NCBI GenBank assembly: GCA_030648265.1
Contig: JAUSHX010000028.1
Coordinates: 249 to 64,248 of the forward strand
Source: a bacterium
GTDB taxonomy: Bacteria > Patescibacteriota > Minisyncoccia > Phycocordibacterales > UBA2100
DNA: 64,000 bases
Reading direction: 5' to 3'
Positions 12,660 through 31,031 of this stretch are shown here, one piece after another (position 1 is the stretch's first letter; the number at the start of each line of letters is the position of its first letter). A model generated the notes under the pieces. It ran no database searches. It saw nothing but the letters and a program-made list of their open reading frames with translations, and was not told where the DNA came from. Made by a program: the position numbers and the translations under genes.

Positions 12660-12676
12660 TGCGATAATACACGCAC

Positions 12677-13501
12677 ATGCTTGCTGTAATGTACGGTTTG
12701 TTCGGTCTTATAATCGGCAGTTTCGTAAATGTTGTTGTATTGCGCTCCGGAGTGCTTTCACTTTCCGGCAAAAGCGGATGTATGTCGTGCGGCGCAAAAA
12801 TCAAATGGTATGACCTTATTCCGGTTCTTTCTTGGCTTGCACTCCGCGGAAGATGCCGCGCGTGCGGAAGCCGCATTTCCGTGCAATATCCAGCGGTGGA
12901 ACTTGGAACGGGGGTTTCTTTCGCGCTTATCGGCGGGGCCTCTTTGCCGCCTCTCGCGACACTCCTCGGGTTGCTTATATGCTCGGTTCTTATCGCAATT
13001 GCAGTCTATGACCTCCGGCATACCATTATTCCGGATGCGTGGGTGTGGAGCTTCAATGCACTAGCTCTTATCTCTATCTTTCTTCCTGAAAGCAGTCTGA
13101 CTGCCTTTAGCAGTCAGACTGCTTTCGATACCATCGCAGGTCCCATTGTCGCCGCTCCGCTTTTCGTTCTATGGCTCGTGTCACGCGGAAAATGGATTGG
13201 ATTGGGTGATTCCAAACTCGCTCTGGGGATCGGCTGGCTTCTAGGTTCGCTTGCAGGCATTAAAGCGGTACTCTTGGCTTTCATTCTCGGAGCGATAATC
13301 GGGCTTGCGCTGATTTTCTTTTCATCTGCCTTGTGGAATAGGATTGTGAAGCAATTTATCCAGCACCACTCATGGCACATGAGTGGTGCTGGGATTACAA
13401 TGAAGAGTGAAATTCCATTCGGACCGTTTTTAATCGCGGCTTGTCTGTTCGTATGGATATCACAGATATATCACATCCCGATTCCTTTTTTATGGCAGTA
13501 A
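12677..13501 (+). CDS. pilD: prepilin peptidase / N-methyltransferase PilD (A24 family)
   Basis: N-terminal CxxC..CxxC domain (CMSCGAKI ... CRACGSRI). Catalytic Asp motifs AVYDL and GLGDSKL. Confidence 0.85.
   Translation: MLAVMYGLFGLIIGSFVNVVVLRSGVLSLSGKSGCMSCGAKIKWYDLIPVLSWLALRGRCRACGSRISVQYPAVELGTGVSFALIGGASLPPLATLLGLLICSVLIAIAVYDLRHTIIPDAWVWSFNALALISIFLPESSLTAFSSQTAFDTIAGPIVAAPLFVLWLVSRGKWIGLGDSKLALGIGWLLGSLAGIKAVLLAFILGAIIGLALIFFSSALWNRIVKQFIQHHSWHMSGAGITMKSEIPFGPFLIAACLFVWISQIYHIPIPFLWQ
13088..13126. repeat. 39-nt perfect inverted repeat inside the pilD CDS, in frame
   Basis: GAAAGCAGTCTGACTGC-CTTTA-GCAGTCAGACTGCTTTC encodes ESSLTAFSSQTAF in a loop between TM segments. Confidence 0.85.
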
Positions 13502-14343: not shown

Positions 14344-14345
14344 TT

Positions 14346-15020
14346 ATGACCCCTTACCACTTTTTTCATGAACGTGAGCTGAATCTCAAAAACAGCGCTA
14401 ACCTCGTGCAAAAGTCGCAAAGACGCAGTAGTCACGATTCCGTTAGGAAAAGTGGTAAGGGGGGCTTCACCCTCGTTGAATTGATTGTCTCGGTTGGGCT
14501 TTTTGCTATCGTCATGCTTATTTCGGTCGGCGCTCTCCTGGCTCTTACGGGAGCCAATCGTAAAGCGCAGGCGCTCCAATCTGTTATGAACAATCTGAAT
14601 ATCGCTTTAGACGGCATGGTGCGTTCTATCCGCATGGGAAGCAATTTTCATTGCGGGTCGGGCGTATTTAACGGCACAAACAATCTTGACGACTGTCCGA
14701 ACGGCAATACGGTGCTCGTATTTAAACCGTTCGGAGGGAATCTGAATCAGCGGGGTTATCTGTTTGATACCGGCGGTACATACTGCGGCCAAAATCGGAT
14801 TTGCAAATCTGCAGATGGCGGGGCGCATTATGTCGCTCTCACGTCTCCGGAGGTGACGATAGACAGCATGAAATTTTATGTACAAGGGAGTACGCCGGGC
14901 GATACGGAACAACCGAAGGTCGTCATTACCGTAGAGGGCACGGCGGGTGCGGCAAATATGAAAACAAAGACGACGTTCAGCATTCAGGCGACGGCCGTAC
15001 AACGGCTCTTAGACCTATGA
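14346..15020 (+). CDS. minor (pseudo)pilin with 40-aa element-derived leader
   Basis: MTPYHFFHERELNLKN...RKSGKGG-FTLVELIV. Alternative GTG start at 14406. Confidence 0.75.
   Translation: MTPYHFFHERELNLKNSANLVQKSQRRSSHDSVRKSGKGGFTLVELIVSVGLFAIVMLISVGALLALTGANRKAQALQSVMNNLNIALDGMVRSIRMGSNFHCGSGVFNGTNNLDDCPNGNTVLVFKPFGGNLNQRGYLFDTGGTYCGQNRICKSADGGAHYVALTSPEVTIDSMKFYVQGSTPGDTEQPKVVITVEGTAGAANMKTKTTFSIQATAVQRLLDL
14349..14464 (+). mobile_element. internally deleted GIY-YIG module (copy G)
   Basis: Same IRs (14349-14364 and 14448-14464). It retains only the PYHF and ERELNLKN ends of the GIY-YIG ORF. Confidence 0.6.
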
Positions 15021-15658
15021 CCCCTTACCACTTTTTCCATGAACGTGAGCTGAATCTCAAAAACGGTGCTAATCTCATGCAAAAGTCGCAAAGATGCAGT
15101 AGTCACGATTCCATTAGAAAAAGTGGTAAGGGGGGCTTTACTCTTGTGGAAACGCTGGTAGCGATTTCGTTGCTCACAATCGCGATTGTTGCTCCGATGA
15201 CTCTTACGACACAAAGTCTTGGAAGCGCCTATTATGCCCGCGACCAAATAACGGCTTTCCACATCGCGCAGGAGGCGATTGAGTCCGTACGGCATGCGAG
15301 AGACCGTAACGTCCTGAAAAATGCGCTCGGTACAACAGTGAATCTGCTTGATGGTTTTCCCGCTTTGAACGGCGACCCATTTACGGTTGATACGACCAAC
15401 GGTGACGCCATGGAACTGTGCTCCGGTACGTGTCAAGCTTTGAGAAAAAGCAACGAAGGGCTGTATGGCTATAATCCCGCATGGAATAAGACTTATTTTA
15501 CTCGTACCGTCAACGCAACATTCGTACCCGAAAGCAATAATGATGAGGTTAATGTTTCCGTAACAGTTTCCTGGCAGACAGGAAGTTTCAACAGCCGCTC
15601 TTTCACGATTTCGGACAATCTTTTCAGGTGGGTGAACGACGGAAGCGCGTCGCAATAA
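15017..15658 (+). CDS. minor (pseudo)pilin with 40-aa element-derived leader
   Basis: ATGA overlap with the previous gene. MTPYHFFHERELNLKN...RKSGKGG-FTLVETLVA. Alternative ATG at 15077. Confidence 0.75.
   Translation: MTPYHFFHERELNLKNGANLMQKSQRCSSHDSIRKSGKGGFTLVETLVAISLLTIAIVAPMTLTTQSLGSAYYARDQITAFHIAQEAIESVRHARDRNVLKNALGTTVNLLDGFPALNGDPFTVDTTNGDAMELCSGTCQALRKSNEGLYGYNPAWNKTYFTRTVNATFVPESNNDEVNVSVTVSWQTGSFNSRSFTISDNLFRWVNDGSASQ
15020..15135 (+). mobile_element. internally deleted GIY-YIG module (copy H)
   Basis: About 93 percent identical to copy G over 122 nt by manual alignment. Identity collapses right after GGGGGGCTT. Confidence 0.6.
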
Positions 15659-15665
15659 AAATACT

Positions 15666-16240
15666 ATGAAAAAGTTTACAGTTTACAGTTTACAGTTTAC
15701 GGAATGGACGCGGCGAGTATTCCGCTGTCAACTGTCAACTGTCAACTGTCAACCGCGCGAGCGCGGTTTTACCCTTCTCCTTGCCGCGCTTGTTTCTTCC
15801 GTCGTCCTTGCCCTTGGCGTTTCAATATTTGAAATTGCTCTAAAACAAGTTAGTCTTTCGTCCATGGGGCGCGAATCGCAGTTCGCTTTTTATGCCGCCG
15901 ACACCGGCGCAGAATGCGCTCTCTATTGGGATGTTCGATGGAATTATTTTGCTACGACGACGCCGTCAAGCGTTGTGCCGCCGCAACCGAAATGCGCCAC
16001 GCAATCACTCAATGCGCTCGGACGCCCGACATCCCCCACGGACCCGTATACGATGACTTTCCAGTTTGACCCGAGCAACAAGTGCGCGCAAGTCAGTATT
16101 AAGAAATGCGCTGCCGTTGGTCTCTGCGATCCGGAGAACCCGCAAATTCATACGGTCATTCATGCCGACGGCTTCAATACATCCTGTGCGACTATAAGCA
16201 CGAGCGCACGTGCGCTTCAGCGTTCTGTGGAAATACAATA

Positions 16241-16244
<4 letters not shown>
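15666..16244 (+). CDS. minor (pseudo)pilin with heptamer-repeat-encoded leader
   Basis: ...CQPRERG-FTLLLAALVSSVVLAL. There is no in-frame ATG, GTG or TTG between the repeat and GFTLL. Confidence 0.65.
15674..15753 (+). repeat. heptamer-array inverted repeat (GTTTACA)n / (CTGTCAA)n
   Basis: Left arm 15674-15702 and right arm 15722-15753. Each 7-nt register has 6 complementary positions and 1 mismatch. Confidence 0.8.
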
Positions 16245-18700
<2,456 letters not shown>

Positions 18701-18719: not shown

Positions 18720-20144
18720 ATGGATTTAAAATCATTGACAATTAAAGAGGCGCGCAAATCGCTTGATGCAAAAGAGTATTCCGCGCTTGAACTTACTGAT
18801 GCATATTTGAAAGCGATTCACGAGCGCGATGGGGAAATACACGCCTATCTGGAAGTGTGGGAAAAAACAGCGCGAGAGGAAGCAAAAGAAGCCGACGAAA
18901 TGATTGCACGCGGAGAATCGCAATCTCTCACTGGCATTCCGATTGCGGTCAAGGATAATATTTTGATTGATGGCCGCATTGCGAGCGCCGGTTCAAAAAT
19001 GCTTGAGAACTACACGGCTTCATACGACGCGACTGTCATAACAAAACTGAAGAGCCAAGGCGCGGTTTTTCTCGGACGCACGAACATGGATGAATTCGCG
19101 ATGGGAAGTTCCACCGAGAATTCTGCATTTGGCCCGAGTAAGAATCCCATAGATATTAAACGTGTTCCCGGGGGGTCATCCGGCGGGTCTGCCGCAGCTG
19201 TCGCCGGTGACTTGGCCCTCGCCGCTTTGGGCAGTGATACCGGCGGCTCTATCCGACAGCCGGCGTCTTTAACAGGCCTTGTTGGGCTTAAGCCGACATA
19301 TGGTGCAGTCTCCCGATACGGCTTGATTGCGATGGGCTCATCATTGGATCAAATTGGCCCGCTTACGAAGACCATTGACGATGCAAGAATTATCTTTGAC
19401 GCCATATGTGGCAACGACAAAAATGACAGCACATCATTGCCAAATTCTCCAAGGTCCGACCTTGGGAATTCAAAAGGTCGGACCTTGAAAATCGGAGTTC
19501 CGCGCGTCTTTCTAGCAAGTGGAGTGAATTCTGACGTCTTGGCAAATTTCGAGAAGACACTTTCGCGTTTAGAAAAGAATGGGCACAAGATTAAAGATGT
19601 TGATTTGCCAAGCCTTCCATCTGCGCTTGCTGTCTACTACATAGTTATGCCCGCAGAAAGTTCTACCAATCTCGCGCGATTTGATGGAATTCGTTACGGC
19701 CTTTCAGTTCCTGCTCTTAATATTCAAGAAGTGTATGCAAAAACGCGCGGACAAGGGTTTGGCCCTGAAGTACGGCGCAGAATTCTTCTCGGCACCTTTG
19801 TGCTTTCATCCGGCTACGCAGATGCATACTATCGTAAAGCTCTCGCAGTGCGGGAGATAATTCGGGCGGACTTTGCACGCGTCCTTGGTTCAGTTGATGC
19901 GATAGTCACGCCCACAACGCCGGGGCCTGCATTTAAATTTGGAGAGAAGTCCGACCCGCTTGCGATGTATCTTGAAGATATTTTTACTGTTCCCGTGAAT
20001 CTTGCAGGCGTGCCGGCGCTGTCCGTTCCTATGGGCACTGTCGCGCGCGAAGGGAAAGATTTGCCGGTAGGATTCCAGATAATCGGTCCACACGGCAATG
20101 AAGAAATGTTGTTCCAAATAGGTAACGATATTGAGAGGGAATAG
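18720..20144 (+). CDS. gatA: Asp/Glu-tRNA amidotransferase subunit A (amidase)
   Basis: Amidase signature GGSSGGSAAAVA, 474 aa. Confidence 0.9.
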   Translation: MDLKSLTIKEARKSLDAKEYSALELTDAYLKAIHERDGEIHAYLEVWEKTAREEAKEADEMIARGESQSLTGIPIAVKDNILIDGRIASAGSKMLENYTASYDATVITKLKSQGAVFLGRTNMDEFAMGSSTENSAFGPSKNPIDIKRVPGGSSGGSAAAVAGDLALAALGSDTGGSIRQPASLTGLVGLKPTYGAVSRYGLIAMGSSLDQIGPLTKTIDDARIIFDAICGNDKNDSTSLPNSPRSDLGNSKGRTLKIGVPRVFLASGVNSDVLANFEKTLSRLEKNGHKIKDVDLPSLPSALAVYYIVMPAESSTNLARFDGIRYGLSVPALNIQEVYAKTRGQGFGPEVRRRILLGTFVLSSGYADAYYRKALAVREIIRADFARVLGSVDAIVTPTTPGPAFKFGEKSDPLAMYLEDIFTVPVNLAGVPALSVPMGTVAREGKDLPVGFQIIGPHGNEEMLFQIGNDIERE

Positions 20145-20271
20145 CAAGCCCCGAGATGACAGGACCATTTTTCGGGCCCCGCCTCCAAGATAAATCCTAA
20201 ACAAGTCTATTTACGGGGCGAGCCCCGTGGAGAACCGATGCGCGGTTCTCTTTACGGGGTATAATCTCCCC

Positions 20272-20979
20272 ATGGACGGAGGAGCTTCATTCAGCACGGT
20301 ATTTTCAAATATATTCTGGTTTATCGGCGAGGTCGCGTTCAAACTCGTGCCGGCTACTGTCGCCACGATTACCGGGGCTGAAAGTTCAGGCACTGGTCCG
20401 ATTTCGGCGGGATTTACTCCCATCACACAACCAGTGACCGCTGGCAGCATAGTTTCTTTTTTGGAGCAGATATCTTCACCGGAGGAATTCAGCTCTTTTG
20501 TTCACCGGTGGGATGTATTCGTCGCGATTTCAATGACCATCTGCCTCATTCTGGCAACGGGCATCATCTACTGTGTCATCCGCATCAGGCAGGTTAGGCA
20601 TCTTGAGCGCATGAAATTCCAGGCCGCGGAACATTCTGTCACTGCAGAAGATGTGCCGCGCACGCAATTGCGCTGGAGCAAAGTTCTTGAGCAGGTGAAT
20701 TCCGATTCCGAACAACACTGGCGTCTCGCCATCCTTGAAGCGGATATCATGCTGAATGAATTACTGGATCTTAGAGGCTACAAGGGAGACACCATGGCTG
20801 ATAAAATGAAACAAGTTGAGCGGGCGGATTTCAACTCAATTGATGAGGCGTGGGAGGCGCATAAAGTTCGTAATCTAATTGCGCACGAAGGTGCATCCTA
20901 CCAAATCAACAATCGCGAAGCCCGCCGGATTATCAGTTTGTACGAAAAAGTATTCAGGGAGTGCAAAGTCATTGAATAA
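20272..20979 (+). CDS. hypothetical membrane protein
   Basis: One central TM segment. The C-terminal domain ends ..AWEAHKVRNLIAHEG. The ORF track opens at GTG 20227. Confidence 0.45.
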   Translation: MDGGASFSTVFSNIFWFIGEVAFKLVPATVATITGAESSGTGPISAGFTPITQPVTAGSIVSFLEQISSPEEFSSFVHRWDVFVAISMTICLILATGIIYCVIRIRQVRHLERMKFQAAEHSVTAEDVPRTQLRWSKVLEQVNSDSEQHWRLAILEADIMLNELLDLRGYKGDTMADKMKQVERADFNSIDEAWEAHKVRNLIAHEGASYQINNREARRIISLYEKVFRECKVIE

Positions 20980-21104
20980 TCTGCCTTGAGATTTTATCGC
21001 GTCGTTTTTCCCGCGCATAGCCACGTGACAAAATGACGCCAACGCAAGCGCTACTTTGTTTTTACGTGGTTGCGAGAGTTGGAAATTTGCAGTATATTCA
21101 CGCG

Positions 21105-21179
21105 AGCGGGGTGGAGCAGTAGTAGCTCGCAAGGCTCATAACCTTGAGGTCGCAGGTGCAATTCCTGTCCCCGCAACCA
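21105..21179 (+). tRNA. initiator tRNA-Met (CAT), CCA encoded
   Basis: AGCGGGGTGGAGCAG...GGCTCATAACC...CCCCGCAACCA. There is a 1:72 mismatch and three G-C pairs in the anticodon stem, as in bacterial tRNA-fMet. Confidence 0.85.
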
Positions 21180-21188
21180 CGTAAAACG

Positions 21189-21213
21189 AAAACCCCGCCA
21201 TTGGCGGGGTTTT
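21189..21213 (+). terminator. rho-independent terminator after tRNA-fMet
   Basis: AAAACCCCGCC-ATTG-GCGGGGTTTT. Confidence 0.7.
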
Positions 21214-21327
21214 CGTCACGTGGCTTGCGCCAGCAGGACATGTGTGAGCGAAGCGATTTACGTGGTTGAGCCGCGTGGTGAACGGAGTGAGCTTTACGCG
21301 GCAACTTATTCACGTAAGAATGTGTAC

Positions 21328-21591
21328 ATGTACCATGTTTACCTTTTAGAAAACCAAGACGACAAAAGTTGGTATATCGGCTACAGCGCCAATCTCAAAC
21401 AACGAATCGAGCGGCATCAAAAGGGTGATGGCGCTCGCACAACAAGTAGAAAGGAAAACTGGGATTTGATTTACTATGAAGCCTACAAAAACGAACAAGA
21501 TGCAAAAGGACGCGAGCGCTTCCTTAAAAGCGGGTCTGGCAGAAAGTTCCTAAAAAAACAGCTCGCACACTATTTGGTTAGTGAATTGTGA
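21328..21591 (+). CDS. stand-alone GIY-YIG nuclease (YhbQ/UPF0213-like)
   Basis: MYHVYLLEN..SWYIGYSANLKQRIERH..LIYYEAY..RERFLKSGSG. Confidence 0.75.
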   Translation: MYHVYLLENQDDKSWYIGYSANLKQRIERHQKGDGARTTSRKENWDLIYYEAYKNEQDAKGRERFLKSGSGRKFLKKQLAHYLVSEL

Positions 21592-21843
21592 CGCCATTTC
21601 CTGCCCCTGCAACACGGTTGTGACGCCAGGGAACCACATTCCCACAGGCGTCGAAAGTGCAAGAAGTCGGTACGGTACCGACTCCCATGGTCGGCTATAA
21701 AAGCGCATGAAACCACGCGAGTGGTTTTTGCGCATGCAATGTTCTCAACGTATTTTTGGTGCAATTCCAATTCTCGTGCAAATCAGTGATGTGTGTTGAA
21801 ATCGTGAAAATAGGCGTATTTCCTAAGTAATTCACGATTATGC

Positions 21844-21871
21844 TTGACTAAATCGTGAAAATCAATATACT
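21844..21871 (+). promoter_or_regulatory. sigma70-like promoter of fic with repeated AAATCGTGAAAAT boxes
   Basis: TTGACT-16 nt-TATACT. The box lies in the spacer (21850-21862), again at 21799-21811, and inverted at 21829-21840. Confidence 0.45.
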
Positions 21872-21898
21872 TTAGCGGACACAGAGAACAAATCGTAT

Positions 21899-22771
21899 AT
21901 GACAAAGACTCCTCAAACACTCAGCCAGATTAAATTGCTCCGCGAGCGCTACTATAAGGCGCTGCCGGGCAAAGAGTTGCTCATCAAGATTATCAATGAG
22001 TCGGAAATTCCCGAGCACGTTTATAATTCAAACGCTATAGAAAATAGCACGCTCACCCTAGAGGAGACCGAAAAAATTCTCCTCCAGATTGATCTTGGCC
22101 GATATGTAAACGAGCGGGAAATTTTTGAAGCGAGGAATCTCGCGCGCGTTGTTGAATATATAGAAACGAAAGCAAAAGAAGCCGAGCTCTCTTTGTCCGG
22201 CATATGCCTGCTTCATAAAATGCTTATTGCCAATATCCGCGACGATGTCGCCGGCAGGTTCCGTCAGACTGGCGAGTGGGTGCGCGTCGGCGCACACATG
22301 GGAGCAGACCCGAAAGACATTGAGCATCTTCTGACAAAAATGCTCACGACATACCACGCAAGCTCGCACGAGCATATTGTGAAGCGCATTGCCTGTCTTC
22401 ATCTCGCCATTGAACACATTCATCCATTTGTTGACGGCAACGGGCGAATCGGCCGCGTCATTAACAACTATGCACTCATTAGGGAGGGGTACGTGCCGAT
22501 TAATATCGCGTTCGTGAATCGCGCCCGCTATTATGATGCGTTCAAAGAGTCTGATGCGAGCGGCGCAACCTCGATTATGGAAGAGGTCGTTGGCCGTGCG
22601 CTTGCCACGAGCTACCACAAGCGCTTGGCATATCTTGAAGGCAAACACATCATCACTCTTGCCGAGTATGGCAAACAAAAAAAACTTTCTCACTCAAATC
22701 TCATTAACAAAGCTCACCGCCAGACCATCCCTGCCTTTCTTGAGAAAGGTGTATGGAAAATCGGAGTGTAG
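21899..22771 (+). CDS. Fic/DOC family protein
   Basis: Fic motif HPFVDGNGRIGR. Confidence 0.85.
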   Translation: MTKTPQTLSQIKLLRERYYKALPGKELLIKIINESEIPEHVYNSNAIENSTLTLEETEKILLQIDLGRYVNEREIFEARNLARVVEYIETKAKEAELSLSGICLLHKMLIANIRDDVAGRFRQTGEWVRVGAHMGADPKDIEHLLTKMLTTYHASSHEHIVKRIACLHLAIEHIHPFVDGNGRIGRVINNYALIREGYVPINIAFVNRARYYDAFKESDASGATSIMEEVVGRALATSYHKRLAYLEGKHIITLAEYGKQKKLSHSNLINKAHRQTIPAFLEKGVWKIGV

Positions 22772-23014
22772 TATTCGTGTAGTAAATACCCTCATAAACC
22801 CTTGCGTTCATCATATAAGCTTGTAGTTAGCTGTTAATCTACAAGCACAAGGAATGACGCAACCCCCGCTGTGAGCCCCGAGGCGAGCAGAGCGAGCTTT
22901 TCGGGGTGAGTCCAGACCTGTTCCGACGCCCCTAGTTGATAAGAAAATCCTTTAAAATAGAGCACGTAATATCGGCAGTATCAAAAAATTAAGATTTGTG
23001 GGATGATTTGATTG

Positions 23015-23677
23015 ATGAAGATTAAAGCACTTCCTGCGCACGAGAGGCCGCGAGAAAAACTCATGGAGAAAGGTGCGGAGAATCTGACCGATGTTGAGTT
23101 ACTCGCAATTCTTTTGCGCACTGGTCGCGCAGGAAAGAGCGCGCTTGATATTGCGGAAAGTATTCTCACAAAGTACTCAAAGAAAAGAATATTAGATATT
23201 ACGTTAGCCGACCTTAGAGCGATCAAAGGCATTGATGCGGGCAAGGCATGCACCTTGCTTGCGGCATTTGAGTTCACAAAACGTGCGACGGGCGCGCATA
23301 AAAATGGAAGGCCAATTATACAAAGCACTGAAGACGCACTGGCACAACTGCATGATGTTCGCTCGCATAAAAAAGAGCATTTCGTTGCGCTTTACTTAAA
23401 TGCTCGCAACGAGCTTGTGCATCGCGAAGATATTTCAGTTGGAACAGTAAACGCAAGCATCGTACATCCGCGCGATGTATTTGCCCCTGCGCTTGAGCAT
23501 AATGCTACGGTCGTCATAGTCGCTCACAATCACCCCTCCGGCAGTCCTGACCCATCGCCAGAAGATTACGATGTTACTGCTCGCCTTAAAGACGCGGGGA
23601 AGCTTATCGGGGTCCAGCTTCTCTACCACCTTATCCTCACCAAAGACGGTCATGCGACGATTCATCAGAACCCGTAA
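23015..23677 (+). CDS. radC: RadC-like JAB/MPN domain protein
   Basis: HNHPSGSPDPSPED JAMM motif and an N-terminal HhH region. Confidence 0.8.
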   Translation: MKIKALPAHERPREKLMEKGAENLTDVELLAILLRTGRAGKSALDIAESILTKYSKKRILDITLADLRAIKGIDAGKACTLLAAFEFTKRATGAHKNGRPIIQSTEDALAQLHDVRSHKKEHFVALYLNARNELVHREDISVGTVNASIVHPRDVFAPALEHNATVVIVAHNHPSGSPDPSPEDYDVTARLKDAGKLIGVQLLYHLILTKDGHATIHQNP

Positions 23678-23880
23678 TGCTAACTTTGTTTAGTTTCACT
23701 CCTCGAATGTGAAAAAACTAGGCTAGTTTGTTTAATGAGAAGCCCGCAATTATCACCCACTCAATTACTTAAGAATTGGTTAAATATCACTTAAGTTTAA
23801 GTAATCTGCATATTTGGGCTAGGAATTTCCACATGCAGTATTGACAAGTATTTCACATATGATACACTATTGTCATAGTT

Positions 23881-24501
23881 ATGAAAAGCGCTAAGAATCT
23901 ACTCGAGCAGCTCAAATCCTTGCCTTATTTCACCAAGGAGTCTGTTTTGCAGCTTAGCAGACCGTACGGCCTTGCAAAAACAACGGTTGACACATACATC
24001 AGCCGCTCCATGAAGCGCAAAGACATCCTTTCGCTAAGGAGGGGGCTATATGTATCTGCCGACTTTTACAACAAGAACAAGAGTGACACCTCGTATCTTT
24101 TCTTCCTTGCAAATGTTATCCGCAAGCCTTCCTATGTAAGTTCGTGGGCGGCGTTGCAGTACTATGGTCTTGCGACGGAAGCAATCCACACCATTACGTC
24201 CGTTACTTCCAAGGTGACGCGTACATACGTTACAAAGGCAGGCAACTTTGTCTACTCGTCGATAAAGGACGAACTATTTTCTGATTCAGTCTTGATAAAA
24301 GGAAAGTTCGACTTCTTTATCGCCACTCCGGCAAAGGCTTTGTTTGACCTGTTGTATGCTAAGACTCGTCAGTTTCAGGGAGTTGCGTTCGAGCATATTC
24401 CAAGACTCGTCGAAGAGCTACGCATCGATATTGATGAAATGGACAAATCAGAAAGAGAGAAATTTTATATGATGGTAAAGAAATATACGCACCATGGATA
24501 A
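23881..24501 (+). CDS. AbiEi-like antitoxin / transcriptional regulator
   Basis: wHTH-type N-terminus, SYVSSWAALQYYGL motif, 8-nt overlap with the downstream NTase gene. Confidence 0.5.
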   Translation: MKSAKNLLEQLKSLPYFTKESVLQLSRPYGLAKTTVDTYISRSMKRKDILSLRRGLYVSADFYNKNKSDTSYLFFLANVIRKPSYVSSWAALQYYGLATEAIHTITSVTSKVTRTYVTKAGNFVYSSIKDELFSDSVLIKGKFDFFIATPAKALFDLLYAKTRQFQGVAFEHIPRLVEELRIDIDEMDKSEREKFYMMVKKYTHHG

Positions 24502-25780
24502 TCAGATTCTCAGCGTGCTTAAGCAGAGACTCCAGGAAGTTGTCGCGTTGGGCGTTGCCGATGCCGAAACACAGCGCAATGCACTGAAAGAGGAGCTTCA
24601 GTACTATGTACTCGATTTTATCTATCACCACCAGGAATACAAAAGATGGGTGATGTACGGCGGTTCCGCGTTGCGTATTTGTCACGGCTTGGACCGAATG
24701 TCTGTCGACCTTGACTTCGAGGTTGAACATCCCATTACTGATGCATTTCTCACAGACCTACAGAATGAAATCGGAGAGCATTTTTCAAGCGCTTACAATG
24801 TTGGTTCGGAATCGTTGACGGTAAAAACCAATCATGGCCGTGGACTAACGCTCCGCTTTATCATCGGCGACGAACTGGGGTTTGGCCACACATCCAATCA
24901 GGTACATGTGAAGATAGACCTCAATAATTTCATGGCCCCCAAGACGGTTATCGAGCGCCGGCCAATCAACCACAACCAGCTTTCATTCGTTATCGTGACC
25001 TACAATATGTCAGCGCTCATGGCGAGCAAGATTGCCGCCATATTCTTGTGCGGTCGGCGGGGTATCGGAGAAGCGGTGTATGAAGAGAAAGGCAGAGACA
25101 TCTACGATTTACTCTGGTACATGGGCAAGAAGACTGTGCCTGACCTTGATTATCTGAACGCAAAGAAAGTTGAAGAAGCTAAAGACATCCGCACGCTTTT
25201 CACTAAGCTCACGATACAGATGAACAAAGTGAACAATGAAAATCTGAAGCAGGATCTCACGCCGCTTTTCACCAACCAGGGATTCATCACTCACTGGCTT
25301 GAAAACTGGCGCGAGAGTTTTTTCCACTTCATGGATGCTTATAAGATTCGTACCGTAACAAAGCTTGAAGGTGTGCGGGTGTTTGAGGATTTCAACTCCG
25401 ACGTATTTTCATTTGTGTACGCATACTCCACGGCAGAGGGAGATTCGGTGCGGGTTGCGTACCTCATCAGTGACTACTGGATGGACTTCAAGGACGGCGA
25501 TATCCCGACGGTCATAGATAACTTTGTAGACGAGCATATCGAATTTGCCGCAAATGGCGTATCAAGTCGACCCGCATCACAGAAAAAGCTCAAACAGTAC
25601 GCAACTATGTTTTATGCTAAAACCGAAGCGTATTTCAAAAAGACCGGACGCATCATGATAGGCGATACTATCGCGACAAAGCTCATCCGCATGACTGCCG
25701 ATAAACTGAACCAGAAAGAGCAGATTGTGCTCAACAAATCCGCCTTGTTGTCATGCGAGCTTGACGACCTGCTAAGATAG
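24494..25780 (+). CDS. AbiEii/AbiGii-family nucleotidyltransferase toxin with long C-terminal extension
   Basis: GGSALRICHGLDRMSVDLDFEV NTase motif. At 428 aa it is longer than the size I recall as typical for this family. Confidence 0.6.
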   Translation: MDNQILSVLKQRLQEVVALGVADAETQRNALKEELQYYVLDFIYHHQEYKRWVMYGGSALRICHGLDRMSVDLDFEVEHPITDAFLTDLQNEIGEHFSSAYNVGSESLTVKTNHGRGLTLRFIIGDELGFGHTSNQVHVKIDLNNFMAPKTVIERRPINHNQLSFVIVTYNMSALMASKIAAIFLCGRRGIGEAVYEEKGRDIYDLLWYMGKKTVPDLDYLNAKKVEEAKDIRTLFTKLTIQMNKVNNENLKQDLTPLFTNQGFITHWLENWRESFFHFMDAYKIRTVTKLEGVRVFEDFNSDVFSFVYAYSTAEGDSVRVAYLISDYWMDFKDGDIPTVIDNFVDEHIEFAANGVSSRPASQKKLKQYATMFYAKTEAYFKKTGRIMIGDTIATKLIRMTADKLNQKEQIVLNKSALLSCELDDLLR

Positions 25781-25785
25781 AAGGT

Positions 25786-25887
25786 ATGCGCTACACACTT
25801 TTTGAACAACTGAAGAAGGTCTTGGAAAAGGACGAGCGATTGGTGGCCGAGGGGGAATTAAATCGAGCGACATTCTCACATTCTTGA
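25786..25887 (+). pseudogene. 33-codon ORF stub truncated by the first palindrome
   Basis: MRYTLFEQLKKVLEKDERLVAEGELNR.. then a stop inside hairpin 1. The resemblance to N-termini of some RM-type proteins comes from memory only. Confidence 0.25.
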
Positions 25888-26006
25888 GAATGTGAGAATG
25901 TCGTGGGAGGGGGAGAATCTATTCTAGTATTTTGCAAAATACTAGAATAGATTGGGAAGGGCGACGGGGCGGGTCATTTCAATGTTTTGCAAAACATTAG
26001 AATGAC
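25869..26006. repeat. array of three AT-rich palindromes separated by G-tracts
   Basis: Hairpin 1 at 25869-25902 (15-bp stem), hairpin 2 at 25916-25953 (perfect 38-nt palindrome), hairpin 3 at 25973-26006 (2 mismatches). The linkers include GGGAAGGGCGACGGGGCGGG. Confidence 0.85.
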
Positions 26007-26057
26007 GGGGGATAGAAAATAACGGGGGGGAGGGATAGGGAAAAAGGAACATTATTA

Positions 26058-26421
26058 CGCTTAATAATCGTTTGACACCTGTTTCTGTGCCTGTTGCCCG
26101 ACTACGCTGGAGCTCCGCTGGACCGTCTACAGGTGCCTATCATGACCGATAGGCCTGCGATTTGTATCCACGCTACGCGCGGACAAATCGGGAGCCTGAC
26201 ACCTGGTGTTTGTTTACGTCGAAACGGTACCGTCTACAGGCGAATTAACAAATTCGTGGCTCGGCCATAAACTTTGCTGACCGATAGACTCCATTTCGAC
26301 GCGATCTTTACTGGCGACGTAGAGCGAGTGTGATGCGGAAGCGCAGCTTCCGCATCACCGAGCCGAGGAGTCAGAAACCGTCAGCCGGTTTTCGCTTAAT
26401 AATCGCCTACCACCTGCTTCT
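26058..26421 (+). repeat. non-coding segment bounded by 29-nt imperfect direct repeats with internal repeated boxes
   Basis: CGCTTAATAATCG..ACCTG.TTCT occurs at 26058-26086 and 26393-26421. Inside, TGACACCTG, CCGTCTACAGG and TGACCGATAG each occur twice. Confidence 0.6.
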
Positions 26422-26478
26422 TTTGAGGAGTACAATGAGCCCTAACGTTTTTGAGTACTGAATTTATAAACGCAGAAT

Positions 26479-27072
26479 ATGAATCAAATTGTCTACATCT
26501 TAATAAATGAGTCTATGCCTGAATTTGTGAAGATAGGCTTTACTCATGGTGATGTAAACGAAAGAATCAGGCAGTTAGATCGGACAGGCGTACCTCTTCC
26601 GTTTGAAGTTTACTACGCTGCAACAGTGGAAGACGCAGAAAAAGAAGAAAAATGGTTGCATTCTATTTTTGCTGATCGTCGGGCACGGGATAGCCGAGAA
26701 TTTTTCAAGATGAATCCTGAATATGCGGCGCTTGCATTAAAACGAGTAGAAATTAGAGAAACTAAGATTTATAGCGTACTGACCCCAGAACAGGAAAAGG
26801 AAGTCGATCAAGTAAAAGAAAGACGCTCAAGATTTCATTTCGCACAGTACGGAATTCCAGTCGGATCTAAACTTACTTTTACGAGAGATTCGGATATTGT
26901 TGCCGAAGTAGTAGAAAACGACAAAATAAAGATTGGAGACAAGGTTGATTTTCTATCAAATGTGGCCCGTGATTTATTGGGATACAGGCGAAGACCTCAA
27001 GGCACTTTGTATTTTGAATTTGAGGGCGAGATCTTAGATGATAGACGCAGAAGAATGGAGGAAGAAGATTAG
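26479..27072 (+). CDS. T5orf172 / GIY-YIG-like domain protein
   Basis: VYILINESMPEFVKIGFT...ERIRQL...PLPFEVYY...EKWLHSIF...REFF pattern. Confidence 0.65.
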   Translation: MNQIVYILINESMPEFVKIGFTHGDVNERIRQLDRTGVPLPFEVYYAATVEDAEKEEKWLHSIFADRRARDSREFFKMNPEYAALALKRVEIRETKIYSVLTPEQEKEVDQVKERRSRFHFAQYGIPVGSKLTFTRDSDIVAEVVENDKIKIGDKVDFLSNVARDLLGYRRRPQGTLYFEFEGEILDDRRRRMEEED

Positions 27073-27173
27073 ACAGGAGGCGGCGGCGCGGCAGGTTTCC
27101 CGGAAATGAGGATTTGTGGGATGATGTTCTGGCGATGGTAAACAATGGACTGGATGTTGCAACAAGGATTCAG

Positions 27174-28055
27174 TTATCTGTAATAATTCAGTAGGACTTC
27201 GAGGGTCAGGTCTACGCCTCTTGTGCGGAGTTCTTTAATTACTTTTCCAGTGTAAAGCTTTTTAAGCATTTCACTTTTTGACGCATCTTCCGCATTGTGT
27301 ATTTTTCTGTGACAATTTGGACATAAAGGCACAATGTTTACTGGAACATCAATACTGTGCGGGAAGTCTTCCTGATTAGAGATGGGTATTATATGATGCA
27401 TTTCAACGTATTGCCCCTCGAGTGTGGGGCTAAAAAAGGTCTTGTGCGATGGATCATAAGTACAGAGGTTGCCAGATAAAATAAGTGCGAGTTTAGCTAT
27501 CCTTGGGTTGCCCCGATACCCAGTAGATGAATTTTTTGTCTGTTTTCTAGGCTTTGCGATTGGTCCCTCCGGCAATGGTTCAATCGGATCCGCGATGCGC
27601 ACTGCAGTCTGGAACATCTCATCAGTTGTGTCTATGACGGACTCCCCCCTTTCTATTGCGGAGATGATTCGCTGAGCCTCCTCAATGGTGACTGTGTCTG
27701 ACGCTGCAAGACCGGAGAGGTCTTTCAGCCTGTATTCGTGACCAGTGCCGTTAGGAGATTCGAATACACGATGTGCCAATCTGCCATCCCCCTGGTTAAG
27801 CTCACTCCGATATTGCGCTGTCCAGTTACTGCCGTGATGAAACTCGTGCCTCCAAAGTTCTGAAAAGGGGTTGGATCTGAAATTCTCGATAGGTAAGTAT
27901 TTCCCAGGTTTTGCGATGGACAATGCCGAAAGAATTATTGCAAATGAGAGGCGGGTGCTATCTTTATATTGGAAAACCTCGGCTAACTCACTGGCGGTCA
28001 TTTCAGAAATCATAGCTGTATAGTTATACACATCCGAAAATAAGTAAAGCACCAA
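27174..28055 (-). CDS. HNH endonuclease (candidate restriction nuclease)
   Basis: C-terminal YVEMHHIIPIS...NIVPLCPNCHRKIHN. Divergently transcribed from the methyltransferase fusion. Confidence 0.7.
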   Translation of the reverse strand: MVLYLFSDVYNYTAMISEMTASELAEVFQYKDSTRLSFAIILSALSIAKPGKYLPIENFRSNPFSELWRHEFHHGSNWTAQYRSELNQGDGRLAHRVFESPNGTGHEYRLKDLSGLAASDTVTIEEAQRIISAIERGESVIDTTDEMFQTAVRIADPIEPLPEGPIAKPRKQTKNSSTGYRGNPRIAKLALILSGNLCTYDPSHKTFFSPTLEGQYVEMHHIIPISNQEDFPHSIDVPVNIVPLCPNCHRKIHNAEDASKSEMLKKLYTGKVIKELRTRGVDLTLEVLLNYYR

Positions 28056-28130
28056 TCTTAGTGCATAATATGCATGTTACTGCTCGTATTGGTTGATTAA
28101 TTTACCACCTACACTCAATTGGTCGAATTC

Positions 28131-31031
28131 ATGGTCTATATATCAACGAAAAAAGCCTCAGATATTTTGGGAGTATCTCCAACAACCATGAGACGATATG
28201 CGGATGCTGGGAGTTTGCCCGTTGTTCGCTTGTCGCAATCGAGGCACCGCCGTTTTGCCGTATCTGACGTTAGTAAGTTGTTGACGGACCTTTCAGTAAG
28301 AGGCGATGAGAATGGGTTCCACAAGAAGAATAGTCCATCTTTCGCCAAACCGCATCCTTCTCACTATCTATTACATAAATATTGGGGCAGAAAGGCCCAT
28401 AATATTGTCGAGAACTATGTTAAGCGATACACCCGAAAAGGAGATGTGGTACTTGATCCGTTCATGGGGAGTGGCGTTGTATTAATTGAATCGGCGAAAG
28501 CACATCGTAAGGCTATTGGAATCGACATTAACCCTTTGTCGAAGTTCATTGTTGACGGTACTACGCAGAAAGTTAACCCCGAGGAACTCGCCGAGGTCTT
28601 TGGAAACATTCTGTCTCAGTTGGAGGCAGCATTTGAATACTACAATATGACAAAATGTTTGCACTGTAGACTCGATTCAACCATAGAAACTACGGTATGG
28701 AATGAGACGGAGCCAGCAGTCATCAGATTCCGCTGCCCCGTTCACGGCGTCGGTGTTAAAGTCCCGTCCCAAAGTGATAAGAGGGTTATTAGAGAGGCAC
28801 GCACTCTGTTTGAAGATCTTGAGGCGGCACACGAATTACAATACCCCAAGGATGAGATTTTAAAATATGTAAAAAGAAGTGGAGTATCGACTATAGATGC
28901 GCTCTTTACATCCCGGGCGTTAGTGCAGTTGTCCCACCTGCTTATCCTAATAGAAAAAGTGGAAGTCCAGTCTGTCCGCGACACTTTAAAATTAATATTT
29001 AGTTCAATGTTACCGAACGTCTCGAAGATGATACCTGGCGATATTGAAAAAGGAACGTATAAGTCTGGTTGGGTCATCAGCAAATTTTGGGTTCCCAAAA
29101 TACATACGGAACGCTCCGTGTTGCATTGCTTGAAACTCCGATTCCAATCTGTTTTCAAAGGGAAAAAAGAGTTAAAAGATTTAGACGAGAGCTTAATTCA
29201 ATCGCACATAGCAGATAGTAAGAAACTGGCTCTCGATGATAATTCAGTCGATTATATTTTTACTGACCCGCCTTATGGAGAGAGTATTGCATACCTCGCC
29301 TTGAGTCATTTTTACAATGCCTGGTTTAAAATGCTACCTGAATATTCTAATGAGATTATTATCGATCCATATAGAAAGATTTCGAAAGAAGATTTTGCAA
29401 GAAATATCCAAAAATGTTTTGGAGAGATGTATAGGGTTCTTAAACCAAATAGGTTTCTATCCTTCACCTTTCACAATAGGAATTTGGATGTGTGGAAGAC
29501 TATCCTAGAGGCATGCCTAAAGTCGGGATTTACACTTAAGGACATTGTCTTTCAGCCACAGGCAGTTTCGTCGGGAACACAGGGTATCAACAGAAAGAAT
29601 ACCTTATACGGGGATTTCATCTATACATTTCAAAAACCTAAGAAAAAGAAGATTCATGAGGGGTTCAAATACTTCGATAACGCCTACGGTTTTCTGGTTA
29701 ATACAATAAATTCTCTATTAGTATCAAAAGGGCAGGTTTCTACGGCTGAATTGTATGAGCATATAATACCTATTATTGTGAAGAATCACGCATATCTGGA
29801 TAAGGATGGGAAAATTATCGATTTGGAGACATTGATCAGTAATAATTTTGAGTATAAGAAGACAGAGAAAGGTGATCGGTGGCGTGCCCTTTCCAGAGTT
29901 GCCAACACATCACGTTTCACGGTCGTGGACTTATTTGCGGGGGCGGGCGGTTTTTCTGAGGGATTTAAACACGCGGGGTTTGACATTGCTGTTGCGGTTG
30001 AAAATGACTCACGTCATAGCGAAACGTATGTGCACAATCACCCAAATACTAGATTGATAGTGGACGGAGTTGAAAACATCTCAACATCAAAGAGGCGGGG
30101 GAGGTTCTCAATTTCAGAGTTTCTAAGGGAGAATCATAAATCTTGCAACATCATCATTGGAGGTCCTCCATGTCAGGGATTCAGCATGGCAGGTTCGCGA
30201 ATTAGAAGAAAAAGAAGATTCTTATCGGATAGACGAAATACCCTGTTTCTTGAATACGTAAATTTGGTTGAAGATTTAAATCCAGAAGTATTTATACTGG
30301 AAAATGTACCGGGAATACTCAACTATGATAACGGAGCCGTAAAAGAAGAGATCATATCGAAATTCGCAGAGCTTGGATATGATGTGCATGCTGAAATCTT
30401 AGACGCAAGTAAGTATGGTATTCCTCAATCTAGAAAGCGGGCTTTTTTCATTGGGAACAGATTGGGCATTCCGTCGAAAACTCTATTTCCGAATTCACAA
30501 TGTGATAACGAAACTGTGTCAGTATGGGATGCGATTAGTGACCTTCCTCAAATTATGAGCGGTGAAGGAGGTCAGGTTATAAAAAACAATATGATGGTAC
30601 CTCAGTCACATTATCAGCAAATAATGCGATTGGAAAACGAGGACTGTATTTTCAATCATGAAGCGCCAACGCATAGTCAGGCCACTCTAGATGTTATGAA
30701 ACTCATAAAACCAGGTAAGGGATTGAAGGATCTACCTAAGGAATTTCACACAAGATCGGTTCATAGTGGTGCATATGGTCGAATGGAAAAGGATAGGCCA
30801 GCGTTCACCTTAACGACTCGTCTAAACACTCCATCGGTTGGAAGAATTACGCACCCAGTACTGCATAGAACGATCACGCCTCGAGAGGCTGCCAGGTTAC
30901 AGAGTTTCTCTGATTCGTATCGATTCTTCGGTGACGTGACAACTCAGGGAATTCAAATTGGCAACGCAGTACCTCCACTCCTGGCTGAATTAATTGCCAA
31001 AGAGATTATGAAAAAAGCTTTTGATCGGTAG
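28131..31031 (+). CDS. fusion protein: excisionase-type HTH + N4/N6 DNA methyltransferase + C5 cytosine methyltransferase
   Basis: HTH: ASDILGVSPTTMRRYA. N4/N6 domain: motif I VLDPFMGSGV, then about 270 aa later motif IV FTDPPYG. C5 domain: DLFAGAGGFSEGF, GGPPCQGFS, ENVPG, QSRKR, GNAVPP. Confidence 0.8.
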   Translation: MVYISTKKASDILGVSPTTMRRYADAGSLPVVRLSQSRHRRFAVSDVSKLLTDLSVRGDENGFHKKNSPSFAKPHPSHYLLHKYWGRKAHNIVENYVKRYTRKGDVVLDPFMGSGVVLIESAKAHRKAIGIDINPLSKFIVDGTTQKVNPEELAEVFGNILSQLEAAFEYYNMTKCLHCRLDSTIETTVWNETEPAVIRFRCPVHGVGVKVPSQSDKRVIREARTLFEDLEAAHELQYPKDEILKYVKRSGVSTIDALFTSRALVQLSHLLILIEKVEVQSVRDTLKLIFSSMLPNVSKMIPGDIEKGTYKSGWVISKFWVPKIHTERSVLHCLKLRFQSVFKGKKELKDLDESLIQSHIADSKKLALDDNSVDYIFTDPPYGESIAYLALSHFYNAWFKMLPEYSNEIIIDPYRKISKEDFARNIQKCFGEMYRVLKPNRFLSFTFHNRNLDVWKTILEACLKSGFTLKDIVFQPQAVSSGTQGINRKNTLYGDFIYTFQKPKKKKIHEGFKYFDNAYGFLVNTINSLLVSKGQVSTAELYEHIIPIIVKNHAYLDKDGKIIDLETLISNNFEYKKTEKGDRWRALSRVANTSRFTVVDLFAGAGGFSEGFKHAGFDIAVAVENDSRHSETYVHNHPNTRLIVDGVENISTSKRRGRFSISEFLRENHKSCNIIIGGPPCQGFSMAGSRIRRKRRFLSDRRNTLFLEYVNLVEDLNPEVFILENVPGILNYDNGAVKEEIISKFAELGYDVHAEILDASKYGIPQSRKRAFFIGNRLGIPSKTLFPNSQCDNETVSVWDAISDLPQIMSGEGGQVIKNNMMVPQSHYQQIMRLENEDCIFNHEAPTHSQATLDVMKLIKPGKGLKDLPKEFHTRSVHSGAYGRMEKDRPAFTLTTRLNTPSVGRITHPVLHRTITPREAARLQSFSDSYRFFGDVTTQGIQIGNAVPPLLAELIAKEIMKKAFDR

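Follow-up and report, generated by a model that had tools for sequence, protein, structure and literature searches.

The question raised by this locus is how the 3' end of an initiator tRNA gene came to be followed by copies of itself, with a small nuclease gene and then a defense island lodged among them. The locus lies within a 64-kb stretch of a Patescibacteria contig (the window, to which coordinates refer; L-numbers such as L082 or L085 denote relatives' loci or contigs fetched for comparison), in which a gene for an initiator-type tRNA-Met (tRNA-fMet) precedes a stand-alone GIY-YIG nuclease gene. Judged from its sequence, the tRNA-fMet 3' end in this genome is an insertion hot spot with successive stacked elements. 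The explanation that we favor is that a homing-endonuclease-like cassette, resembling the mORFs of fungal mitochondria, shares the site with separately inserted defense islands, a reading that we judge about equally apt to prove right or wrong. What was observed directly comprises the repeats and hairpins, the boundaries of the island and the occurrence of the cassette family on three tRNA species.

Relics of the tRNA tail behind the nuclease gene

Directly after the GIY-YIG gene lies relic R1, a direct copy of the tRNA 3' end that starts in the T-loop (Table 1). When 21595-21616 is aligned with the T-loop-to-trailer segment of the tRNA (21159-21181), 19/23 positions match, with one gap. The alignment score of 24 corresponds to P ~0.01 against shuffles of 21200-22000 and was reached by none of the 306 other 800-nt chunks of the window. 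By its own score the significance of R1 is modest; together with the relatives, in which the relic is better preserved, the case is decisive. About 170 nt 3' of its tRNA, L082 carries GGCCATTTCCTGCCCCCGCAACACG, which matches the window relic at 24/26 positions, and L085 carries CGCCATTTCCTGCCCCCGCAACCACG, which also matches it; the two copies that flank the L085 cassette, TCCTGTCCCCGCAACCACG and TCCTGCCCCCGCAACCACG, agree at 18/19. The degenerate direct copy that a first-pass annotation had claimed at this place is thus a true relic of the tRNA-fMet 3' end. A remnant of an elongator tRNA-Met was considered and rejected, since the relic reads ...CCCCTGCAAC like the initiator and not ...CCGACAC.

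What looks like a one-base deletion in the relic (CAAC-ACGG) marks the point where a 95-nt insert, F1, joins it, beyond which the rest of the relic (CACGCGAGTGGTTTTT) resumes at 21714. F1 is homologous to the DNA directly after the intact tRNA-fMet in L085 and L086 (69.5% over 105 nt, E 3e-6) and to sites in L007 that read ...GGGCAAC/ACGGTTGTGACGCCAGG. The relic in L085 is uninterrupted (GCAACCACGCAAGTGGCTTTT), and the block at 21711-21890 is 91.8% identical to L085 9063-9245. F1-type DNA evidently goes in after GCAAC, in the live tRNA tail or in its relic, because its relatives follow the intact tRNA in L085 and L086 and split the relic in the window. An alternative scenario, in which R1 and F1 are the displaced original tail with its old flank, is less preferred, given that F1 is flanked by GCAAC and GAAAC and that the L085 relic is uninterrupted. 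The relic is genuine under both scenarios.

Farther downstream lies R3, probably an older and more decayed relic. Its score is 22 (P ~0.03), which makes it the weakest of the relics, and its L085 counterpart, GGTGCAATTTCAATCCTCCCCGTGCAAATCAG, resembles the tRNA sequence more closely. Nucleotide identity to L085 is 92% in the segment that holds R2 and R3, 5' of the Fic gene, compared with 83% for the GIY-YIG ORF (open reading frame) and 71% for the core membrane-protein gene, and two exact AAATCGTGAAAAT repeats (21799-21811 and 21850-21862) surround a strong promoter-like site in it. This conservation and these repeats suggest an operator or a recent exchange of this segment of the island.

The cassette family in relatives and on other tRNAs

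The GIY-YIG gene belongs to a cassette of ~430 bp that consists of a tRNA tail, a terminator, a leader hairpin and a gene for a UPF0213/Slx1-like GIY-YIG protein of 84-91 amino acids, followed in the best cases by a relic of the local tRNA. The cassette encodes no protein other than the nuclease. Every homolog context that was fetched starts with a tRNA 3' end or its remnant at a fixed distance from the ORF. The cassette stands behind tRNA-fMet in the window, L138, L147-L152 and L154-L156, all with the same LigA-GatC-GatA-membrane protein synteny, and it also stands behind tRNA-Gln in L157, where the relic after the ORF (TCCTAGTCTCC) matches at 11/11 positions and then diverges, and behind tRNA-Asp in L164, where the relic (ATCCGGTCGCCCGCGC) matches at 16/16. 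In L160, a tRNA-Gln gene is followed by a GIY-YIG gene of 106 amino acids, a 13/13 relic that is the left end of the next cassette, and then that cassette. Only a remnant of the tRNA-fMet tail is found at the cassette start in L085, L141, L153 and L165; the GIY-YIG protein that L085 encodes in its copy of the cassette is 95% identical to that of the window. Each relic that can be seen duplicates a stretch with its start in the T-loop and its end at the 3' terminus. The layout of an endonuclease ORF between a copy of a gene's 3' end and the displaced 3' end is therefore shared by the window, L085, L157 and L164, and by L160 around its second GIY-YIG gene.

The presence of the gene is patchy. 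At the tRNA-fMet locus it is found in the window, L085, L138, L147 and L154, and it is absent from the relatives that are closest by the adjacent membrane protein (80-85% identity; L082, L083/L084 and L096) and also from L087; these comparisons are between different species and not within one population. Other GIY-YIG subfamilies occur at tRNA ends in L011, L018, L103, L121 and L160 (those in the first four were met in loci fetched for other reasons), and an HNH gene occupies the equivalent slot in L012.

The first-pass annotation had described the nuclease gene as bracketed in attL/attR style. The geometry holds up, with the gene between the tRNA 3' end and a direct relic and with cognate relics recurring on tRNA-Asp and tRNA-Gln; the term is best kept for geometry only, given that no recombinase gene accompanies any layer tested. 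Relatives that lack the GIY-YIG gene share one half of the flanking arrangement, since L082 and L096 keep the right-hand relic, there behind a structured unit without an ORF. It follows that the bracket belongs to the site and the cassette frame and does not prove that the nuclease created it.

Several arrangements seen in these loci go beyond the basic cassette. Three small GIY-YIG genes of different subfamilies stand in tandem around one tRNA-Gln in L159-L163, followed by an IS110-family transposase gene in L159 and L161-L163 and by YceG instead in L160. Viral contigs gave one match, in L166, an IMG/VR contig from sample 3300025323, which also yielded L084, L088 and L149. There, positions 1501-1602 encode a fragment of the GIY-YIG family, the last 34 residues, after a hydrophobic ORF and with no tRNA nearby; this truncated copy is taken as evidence that copies decay. 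Partial copies of tRNA 5' ends lie upstream of the real tRNA in L011 (3243-3270), L012 (2935-2985), L018 (10245-10290) and L160 (445-510), with a hairpin inserted at the D-loop position of the copy in L012, L018 and L160. For another GIY-YIG subfamily (L011, L018 and the first gene of L160), the gene end overlaps the 5' end of the next tRNA. The 5'-end copies with their GIY-YIG genes look like a mirror-image, 5'-end version of the 3'-end cassettes.

The GIY-YIG protein

The protein matches UPF0213 protein BH0048 in the Protein Data Bank (1zg2, 1.4e-7), followed by 1ywl (0.003) and, weakly, SLX1. A minimal stand-alone Slx1-like group has already been described (PMC1564403). A total of 344 homologs were found, and among the matches listed (120 of 344) identity is 63-90% and the named homologs are from Patescibacteria groups such as Kaiser-, Taylor- and Vogelbacteria. 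Residues Y5, Y16, G18, R26, H30 and E51 are each identical in at least 98% of 124 aligned sequences, and differences between the window and L085 genes fall 5/0/32 on the three codon positions. The ORF is, by these signs, under strong purifying selection, which together with the near-invariant catalytic residues counts for a mobility function and at the same time belongs to the counter-evidence weighed below. A literature search found no functional study of UPF0213, YhbQ or COG2827 proteins.

Inverted repeats, boxes and hairpins

Upstream of the tRNA, TTTTACGTGGTTGCG (21060-21074) is the exact reverse complement of CGCAACCACGTAAAA (21172-21186) at the tRNA tail, and the match extends to 18/20 over 21055-21074 and 21172-21191. 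A spaced inverted repeat of at least 15 nt appeared in 0 of 500 dinucleotide shuffles of 20900-21900 (the longest was 14 nt, once), so the 15-nt repeat that the first-pass annotation had pointed out is both exact and far from what shuffling yields. The exact motif ACGTGGTTG has three sites in the window, all at this locus (21064 and 21260 on the plus strand, 21174 on the minus strand), and ACGTGGCTTG occurs at 21218. A further inverted pair links 21019-21033 with 21211-21225 (14/15).

The boxes noted earlier near 21217 and 21259 are thus present and confined to the locus; they are not att-type repeats, and most of them are arms of hairpins. The tRNA 3' end and trailer (GCAACCACGT) pair with ACGTGGCTTGC (21218-21229) around a GC-rich terminator stem-loop and so form the base of hairpin H1. 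In an alignment of eight cassettes, compensatory changes affect 12 of the 21 pairs of H1, basal helix included: CCACGT/ACGTGG becomes TCGAGT/ACTCGA in L138 and L141, and CCGCGT/ACGCGG behind tRNA-Asp in L164. Because the basal helix covaries in relatives, two of the boxes are the two arms of one conserved hairpin. Box 5, in the leader, is also present in the cassettes of L147, L085 and L154. A second hairpin, M3, precedes the ORF in 8/8 cassettes compared, with two copies in L085 and in L157; its stem has one covarying pair (U-A to C-G in 3/9 copies), and the remaining pairs are invariant. Just 5' of the GIY-YIG start codon, a CACGTAAG box (21306-21320) that is present only in the window can pair with box 5, and this pairing, which is not conserved in other cassettes, would enclose M3 and cover the likely ribosome-binding region. 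An Rfam scan of the leader, H1, F1 and the units without an ORF gave nothing above noise.

The upstream arm of the inverted repeat belongs to a diverged inverted duplicate of H1, with 48/78 columns identical to the reverse complement of 21160-21235, near-perfect ends and a decayed center. About 50 nt are missing here in L082, and the duplicate is absent in L084, L096 and every other relative examined. It is regarded as the scar of a lineage-specific rearrangement and not as a functional partner of the tRNA. A leader-trailer stem for processing of the pre-tRNA was considered for this arm and rejected, as the arm lies at or before the predicted -35 hexamer, is thus probably not transcribed with the tRNA and is found in no relative. 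A genome-wide operator or promoter motif was likewise rejected for the ACGTG boxes, the exact motif being confined to the locus and sites with one mismatch being no more than chance would give (14 against 11 expected).

The defense island and its ends

The native trailer and terminator of the tRNA-fMet (relic R4) are found displaced by 14.5 kb. They are 89.5% identical to L096 1272-1308 and 86.8% identical to L082 1267-1303, both of which directly follow the tRNA. Both flanks of the island, tRNA-fMet and ilvD, are syntenic with L084 (ilvD 81% over 228 nt). From the native trailer and the ilvD synteny it follows that all DNA in between is inserted. The start of the accessory island is therefore where the first-pass annotation had placed it, and its far end can now be set at the native trailer, followed by ilvD. 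G+C content is 0.39-0.47 across 21-35 kb compared with ~0.50 outside, and this low-GC stretch is packed with defense genes according to Pfam.

The island has a conserved right-end element, X, and the palindrome GGTACNGTACCG occurs in the window only at 21669, 35529 and 35669, that is, in F1 and at the right end of the island; 0/100 shuffles reached this count. X ends in ..GGGCAAC and is possibly a decayed tRNA 3' half. In L007, X is joined directly to F1 twice (15411-15530 and 16672-16800), which looks like a tandem arrangement or a circle-junction site. Placement of the island varies: it lies between the tRNA side and the cassette in L165 and beyond the cassette in L154, and in L085 a PIF1/TOTE/Fic island lies between the tRNA and the cassette. 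No recombinase domain was found in the tested ORFs, of 90 amino acids or more, from the window island, the rest of the window and the L085 island.

A proposed mechanism and its competitors

We infer that the nuclease drove insertion of the cassette and where it would have cut. If the nuclease is or formerly was the agent, it would cut cassette-free tRNA genes near the T-loop or 3' end, and repair from a cassette-bearing copy would install the cassette, which would bring a working tRNA tail and terminator so that the host loses nothing. The defense island, with its other conserved ends (F1 and X) and its other junction after GCAAC (C74), would probably have arrived by a different mechanism. In favor of this proposal are the orthologous relics in relatives, the cassette on three tRNAs with cognate relics, its patchy presence, the nuclease as sole coding gene, the other nuclease families in equivalent slots, the lack of an integrase in the layers tested and the published precedents of the mORFs (PMC3630166) and of SegB in the T4 tRNA cluster (PMC2988022). 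A considerable body of evidence weighs against it. Layers without a nuclease occupy the same site, including the ORF-less units (L082, L084, L087 and L103), the 95-nt F1 and whole defense islands, and a general mechanism that is independent of the nuclease therefore exists here. GIY-YIG enzymes cut with a 2-nt stagger, which on its own does not yield a duplication of 18-20 nt, and cleavage by the 87-amino-acid protein is itself a putative step. The protein consists of the catalytic domain and a basic tail of ~12 amino acids, with no second Pfam or NCBIfam domain and so no DNA-binding module of the kind found in known homing endonucleases. The L138 cassette has no relic after the ORF, and that of L147 is weak. 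The GIY-YIG protein is better conserved than GatA, with GatA/GIY-YIG identities of 77/95, 67/88, 59/79 and 55/77% in four comparisons, and this tracking of host divergence suggests vertical descent with a selected cellular role and not a homing cycle. The incongruence between gene tree and host tree expected of horizontal spread was not seen in these four comparisons, in which GIY-YIG identity ranks with GatA identity. Because the domain is bare, selection is purifying, divergence parallels that of GatA and modules without a nuclease share the site, the cassette is either old, seldom mobile or domesticated.

An alternative to a homing cassette is site-specific recombination, in which a tyrosine or serine recombinase, encoded elsewhere or lost, integrates small circles or islands at the tRNA 3' end and the GIY-YIG gene is cargo. 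At tRNA genes, the att sites of integrases classically take the form of direct repeats that span the T-loop and all that follows up to the 3' end, and here repeats of the tRNA 3' part (21159-21181) stand at both ends, at R1, R3 and the displaced trailer. Recombination would also account for the piling up of modules and islands without a nuclease, for the conserved ends F1 and X with their palindrome, for the L007 X/F1 joints that resemble tandem or attP-type sites, and for module orders that are not the same in L154 as in L165, nor in the window as in L085. It has to contend, however, with the lack of a recombinase domain in everything tested, with modules of 190-430 bp that are very small substrates for circle integration, with several unrelated nuclease families converging on these slots, and with relics that are cognate to three tRNAs around a constant interior, for which an attP would have had to switch repeatedly. 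On balance we consider it rather unlikely that recombination explains the locus.

If neither homing nor an integrase is at work, the nuclease may be a host factor that descends vertically and is expressed in concert with the initiator tRNA transcript, such as an enzyme that processes RNA or DNA, and the tail copies may have come from local duplication, gene conversion or terminator evolution and been kept as RNA structures. This joint claim strikes us as improbable. The high conservation of the protein, congruent with the host phylogeny, would fit a resident gene, as would the LigA-GatC-GatA-membrane protein-tRNA-fMet-GIY-YIG synteny that persists down to 55% GatA identity, the conserved and covarying leader and terminator hairpins, the 24/26 match of the L082 relic (above neutral expectation) and the fusion of a prokaryotic Slx1-like domain to TrmH, which has been linked to RNA metabolism (PMC1564403). 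Set against these are the cassettes with cognate relics on tRNA-Gln and tRNA-Asp, the tandem arrays, the gene's absence at the locus in the closest relatives, the HNH gene and other GIY-YIG subfamilies in the same slot and the truncated copy in L166. That the relic and boxes are fortuitous in intergenic DNA of balanced AT and GC content has next to no chance of being right; the modest P value of the relic's own local alignment is in its favor, and the comparative data already refute it, with the 15-nt inverted repeat in none of the 500 shuffles, orthologous relics and covarying hairpins in many genomes, and independent cognate relics of 16/16, 13/13 and 11/11 on other tRNAs.

Returning to the homing cassette, a broader form of the proposal can be put forward, which we hold to be somewhat less likely than not. 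Stand-alone UPF0213/Slx1-like GIY-YIG proteins may be the mobility enzymes of undescribed Patescibacteria mini-cassettes that home to tRNA 3' ends (and, in a sister subfamily, to 5' ends), replace the tail and terminator, leave a cognate relic and make tRNAs stacking sites for introns, ORF-less units and integrase-less islands, perhaps in cooperation with group I introns.

The initiator tRNA, introns and ORF-less units

The label "initiator" is reasonable because the tRNA has the A1xA72 mismatch and A11:U24, A72 faces A1 or C1 in its orthologs, and in relatives a distinct elongator tRNA-Met comes after it. The T-loop reads UGCAAUU, and the anticodon stem has 2/3 G-C pairs, with A29-U41 in place of the third. 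In the T-loop (21158-21164), U54-G55-C56 (GGTGCAATTCC) has G in place of the expected U55 of the near-universal T-psi-C; this variant is common to L004, L082-L087, L138 and L017, and L147 and L154 have the canonical GGTTCGATTCC. The -10 element of the predicted promoter and the bases after it (GCAGTATATTCACGCG) are shared by the window and L082. In many Patescibacteria the tRNA-fMet ortholog follows GatA and a membrane-protein gene.

The window tRNA is continuous and has no group I intron, the tRNA model being the sole Rfam match in 20000-23000. In relatives, the tRNA-fMet carries group I introns without an ORF, at position 33/34 in L138, L086 and L088 and at 36/37 in L147; the L138 and L147 introns match Rfam RF00028 with 82 and 69 bits, respectively, and in these two loci the intron-bearing tRNA is directly upstream of the GIY-YIG cassette. 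No strict link between intron and cassette was found, with the cassette alone in the window, L154 and L164 and both together in L138 and L147. The introns hide the tRNA from ARAGORN, and the L085 intron is internally deleted, leaving a dead tRNA or reflecting an assembly variant.

Units of ~150-190 nt without an ORF follow the tRNA terminator in L084 (1627-1800 and 1845-2000), L082 (1283-1443), L087 (10905-11070), L096 and L103 (10850-11000). At its start each unit has the complement of the 3' acceptor strand and the T-loop of the tRNA (TGCGGGGAG..GCGGAATTGCA), and at its end a copy of the tRNA tail. The units fold strongly (z-scores of -4.8 to -7.2), their copies differ by compensatory changes, and Rfam has no match for them; they may be cassettes in decay or RNAs that resemble tRNA.

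Gene order and further features

Coordinates are collected in Table 1. The genome is of a Paceibacteria/Kaiserbacteria-like type. Its best GatA identity is 60% among species representatives and 77-79% among metagenome relatives. Upstream of the locus, at 2760-16244 and 210-968, lies a type IV pilus and competence-like cluster with PilM, two T2SSE ATPases, PilC, several pilins, a prepilin peptidase and a phosphoribosyltransferase-domain protein that is possibly ComFC-like. Competence-type genes would permit the DNA uptake needed for homing between cells, which is context and not evidence. The ORF at 13441-14343 (+), which has the prepilin peptidase gene on one side and further pilin genes on the other, contains a second GIY-YIG domain (residues 26-97) and continues in the same frame, uninterrupted by a stop codon, as a prepilin leader and a pilin-like protein of type IV (...KGG/FTLMELIVV). 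A GIY-YIG gene is likewise directly upstream of a pilin gene in L118.

Table 1. Features of the tRNA-fMet locus (window coordinates unless a relative is named)
Feature	Position	Strand	Details
LigA, GatC, GatA, 250-aa membrane protein, tRNA-Met(CAT), GIY-YIG gene	20227-20979 (membrane protein)		Local gene order
Upstream inverted duplicate of H1 (boxes 1 and 2)	21019-21074	.	Diverged; right end overlaps predicted -35 hexamer
Predicted sigma-70-like promoter	21070-21098	+	TTGCGA-17-TATATT; directly 5' of tRNA; consensus scan, 9/12 matches
tRNA-Met (CAT), initiator type	21105-21179	+	CCA encoded; ARAGORN; Rfam tRNA 58 bits
Hairpin H1	21172-21229	+	-41.9 kcal/mol, z = -8.1; U-run after stem-loop
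Accreted region between tRNA and native trailer	21180-35686		GIY-YIG cassette and defense island; Pfam, low GC, synteny
Box 5	21257-21268	+	TTTACGTGGTTG; leader; second complement of tRNA tail; exact direct repeat of 21061-21072
Leader hairpin M3	21270-21302	+	GCCGCGTG ... TACGCGGC; 8-bp stem, G[C/T]CGCGTG...TACGCG[G/A]C
GIY-YIG nuclease gene, stand-alone	21328-21591	+	87 aa, UPF0213/Slx1-like; PF01541, 1e-17, residues 1-72
Relic R1	21592-21613	+	Direct copy of tRNA-fMet 3' end, T-loop to C74; CGCCATTTCCTGCCCCTGCAAC
F1	21614-21708	+	Hairpin-rich 95-nt insert splitting relic; flanks GCAAC (21609-21613) and GAAAC (21709-21713)
R2	21709-21732	+	Relic remainder (AAAC-CACG) and short terminator-like hairpin CCACGCGAGTGG, then T-run; colinear with L085 9063-9085
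R3	21755-21790	+	Probable T-arm/3'-end relic, GGTGCAATTCC aattctcg TGCAAATCAG; 11-nt exact repeat of 21155-21165
Genes 3' of GIY-YIG gene			Fic, RadC, AbiEii toxin, T5orf172, HNH, large DNA methylases, N6-methylase/restriction-like protein, SocA antitoxin
Upstream partner ORF of AbiEii toxin	23881-24501		No Pfam match
X, conserved island right-end element	35631-35692	+	Ends ...GGGTAGGGTACCGCCAAGGGCAAC; 75-79% to L165 1287-1347 and two L007 sites
R4, native tRNA-fMet trailer and terminator	35687-35724	+	Displaced 14.5 kb downstream
ilvD	35773		After island
Intron in L138	2502-2789
Intron in L147	2544-2791
Intron in L086	~3109-3327
Intron in L085	2424-2486

Comparison with known systems

Duplications of tRNA tails at islands, free-standing GIY-YIG genes and mORFs are each already known. 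A literature search did not find a description of their combination, that is, a minimal UPF0213-type cassette that replaces bacterial tRNA tails on several tRNA species alternates with folded ORF-less units and adjoins integrase-less islands and intron-bearing tRNAs.

Integrase-mediated islands and cis-mobilizable elements at tRNA 3' ends leave direct repeats that bracket the insert, with older att relics pushed downstream. The locus resembles them in that repeats of the tRNA 3' part bracket DNA, insertions stack and the cargo includes defense genes; it differs in that no integrase was found in or beside the layers tested, the modules are as small as 95-430 bp and one type always carries a nuclease. 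If our proposal is true, it would offer a route by which defense islands gather at tRNA genes where an integrase is invisible. The tyrT-type repeats of Escherichia coli are tandem units of ~178 bp that each end in the last 19 nt of the tRNA. The ORF-less units of L084, L082 and L087 likewise have the tRNA-fMet tail copied at their end and can be tandem, whereas they are strongly folded, show compensatory changes between copies and alternate with the nuclease cassette in the same frame.

Group I introns are known from Patescibacteria tRNAs, and a recent study concluded that these introns lack homing endonucleases and hence rarely move (PMC13011429). GIY-YIG genes are not mentioned in this 2026 survey. 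Collaborative or trans homing pairs ORF-less group I introns with a neighboring free-standing endonuclease (PMC2988022). The ORF-less introns in the tRNA-fMet of relatives, directly upstream of the GIY-YIG cassette, recall this arrangement, whereas the window tRNA is intron-free and intron and cassette occur independently. If the cassette is mobile, the conclusion of the survey would have to be qualified, in that nuclease genes adjoin several of those tRNAs outside the intron. On the practical side, intron-split tRNAs and tail relics at these loci mislead tRNA finders and programs that call island boundaries.

Phage T4 SegB is a free-standing GIY-YIG endonuclease that is encoded in a tRNA cluster and targets the tRNA region in "intronless homing", and its expression is restrained by terminators or hairpins 5' of the ORF, so that both this restraint and the position among tRNA genes are shared with the cassette (PMC2988022). 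Seg endonucleases spread in phage co-infection and no duplication of a tRNA tail is known to have been described for them, whereas the element here is cellular and apparently old. Seg proteins have ~200 amino acids or more and possess DNA-binding domains.

The closest parallel in layout is with the mORFs of fungal mitochondria, which are found in atp6 of Allomyces and in atp6, atp9, cox2 and nad3 of Glomus, and for which the endonuclease was shown to drive mobility (PMC3630166). As in the cassette, the gene body is followed by an inserted replacement 3' end, a free-standing endonuclease ORF (GIY-YIG in atp9) and the displaced native 3' end (PMC3630166), and the host gene remains functional. 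The differences are that the host here is a bacterial chromosomal tRNA gene and not an organellar protein gene, the duplicate is ~20 nt, the enzyme is a bare UPF0213/Slx1-like domain of 87 amino acids, the cassette adds a terminator that pairs with the tRNA tail, and the cassette is known from sequence alone. If the parallel is true, it would give UPF0213/YhbQ-like minimal GIY-YIG proteins their first functional context and would show that the mORF principle, in which an endonuclease gene comes with a substitute for the gene end, applies to bacterial chromosomal tRNA genes as well as to fungal organelles.

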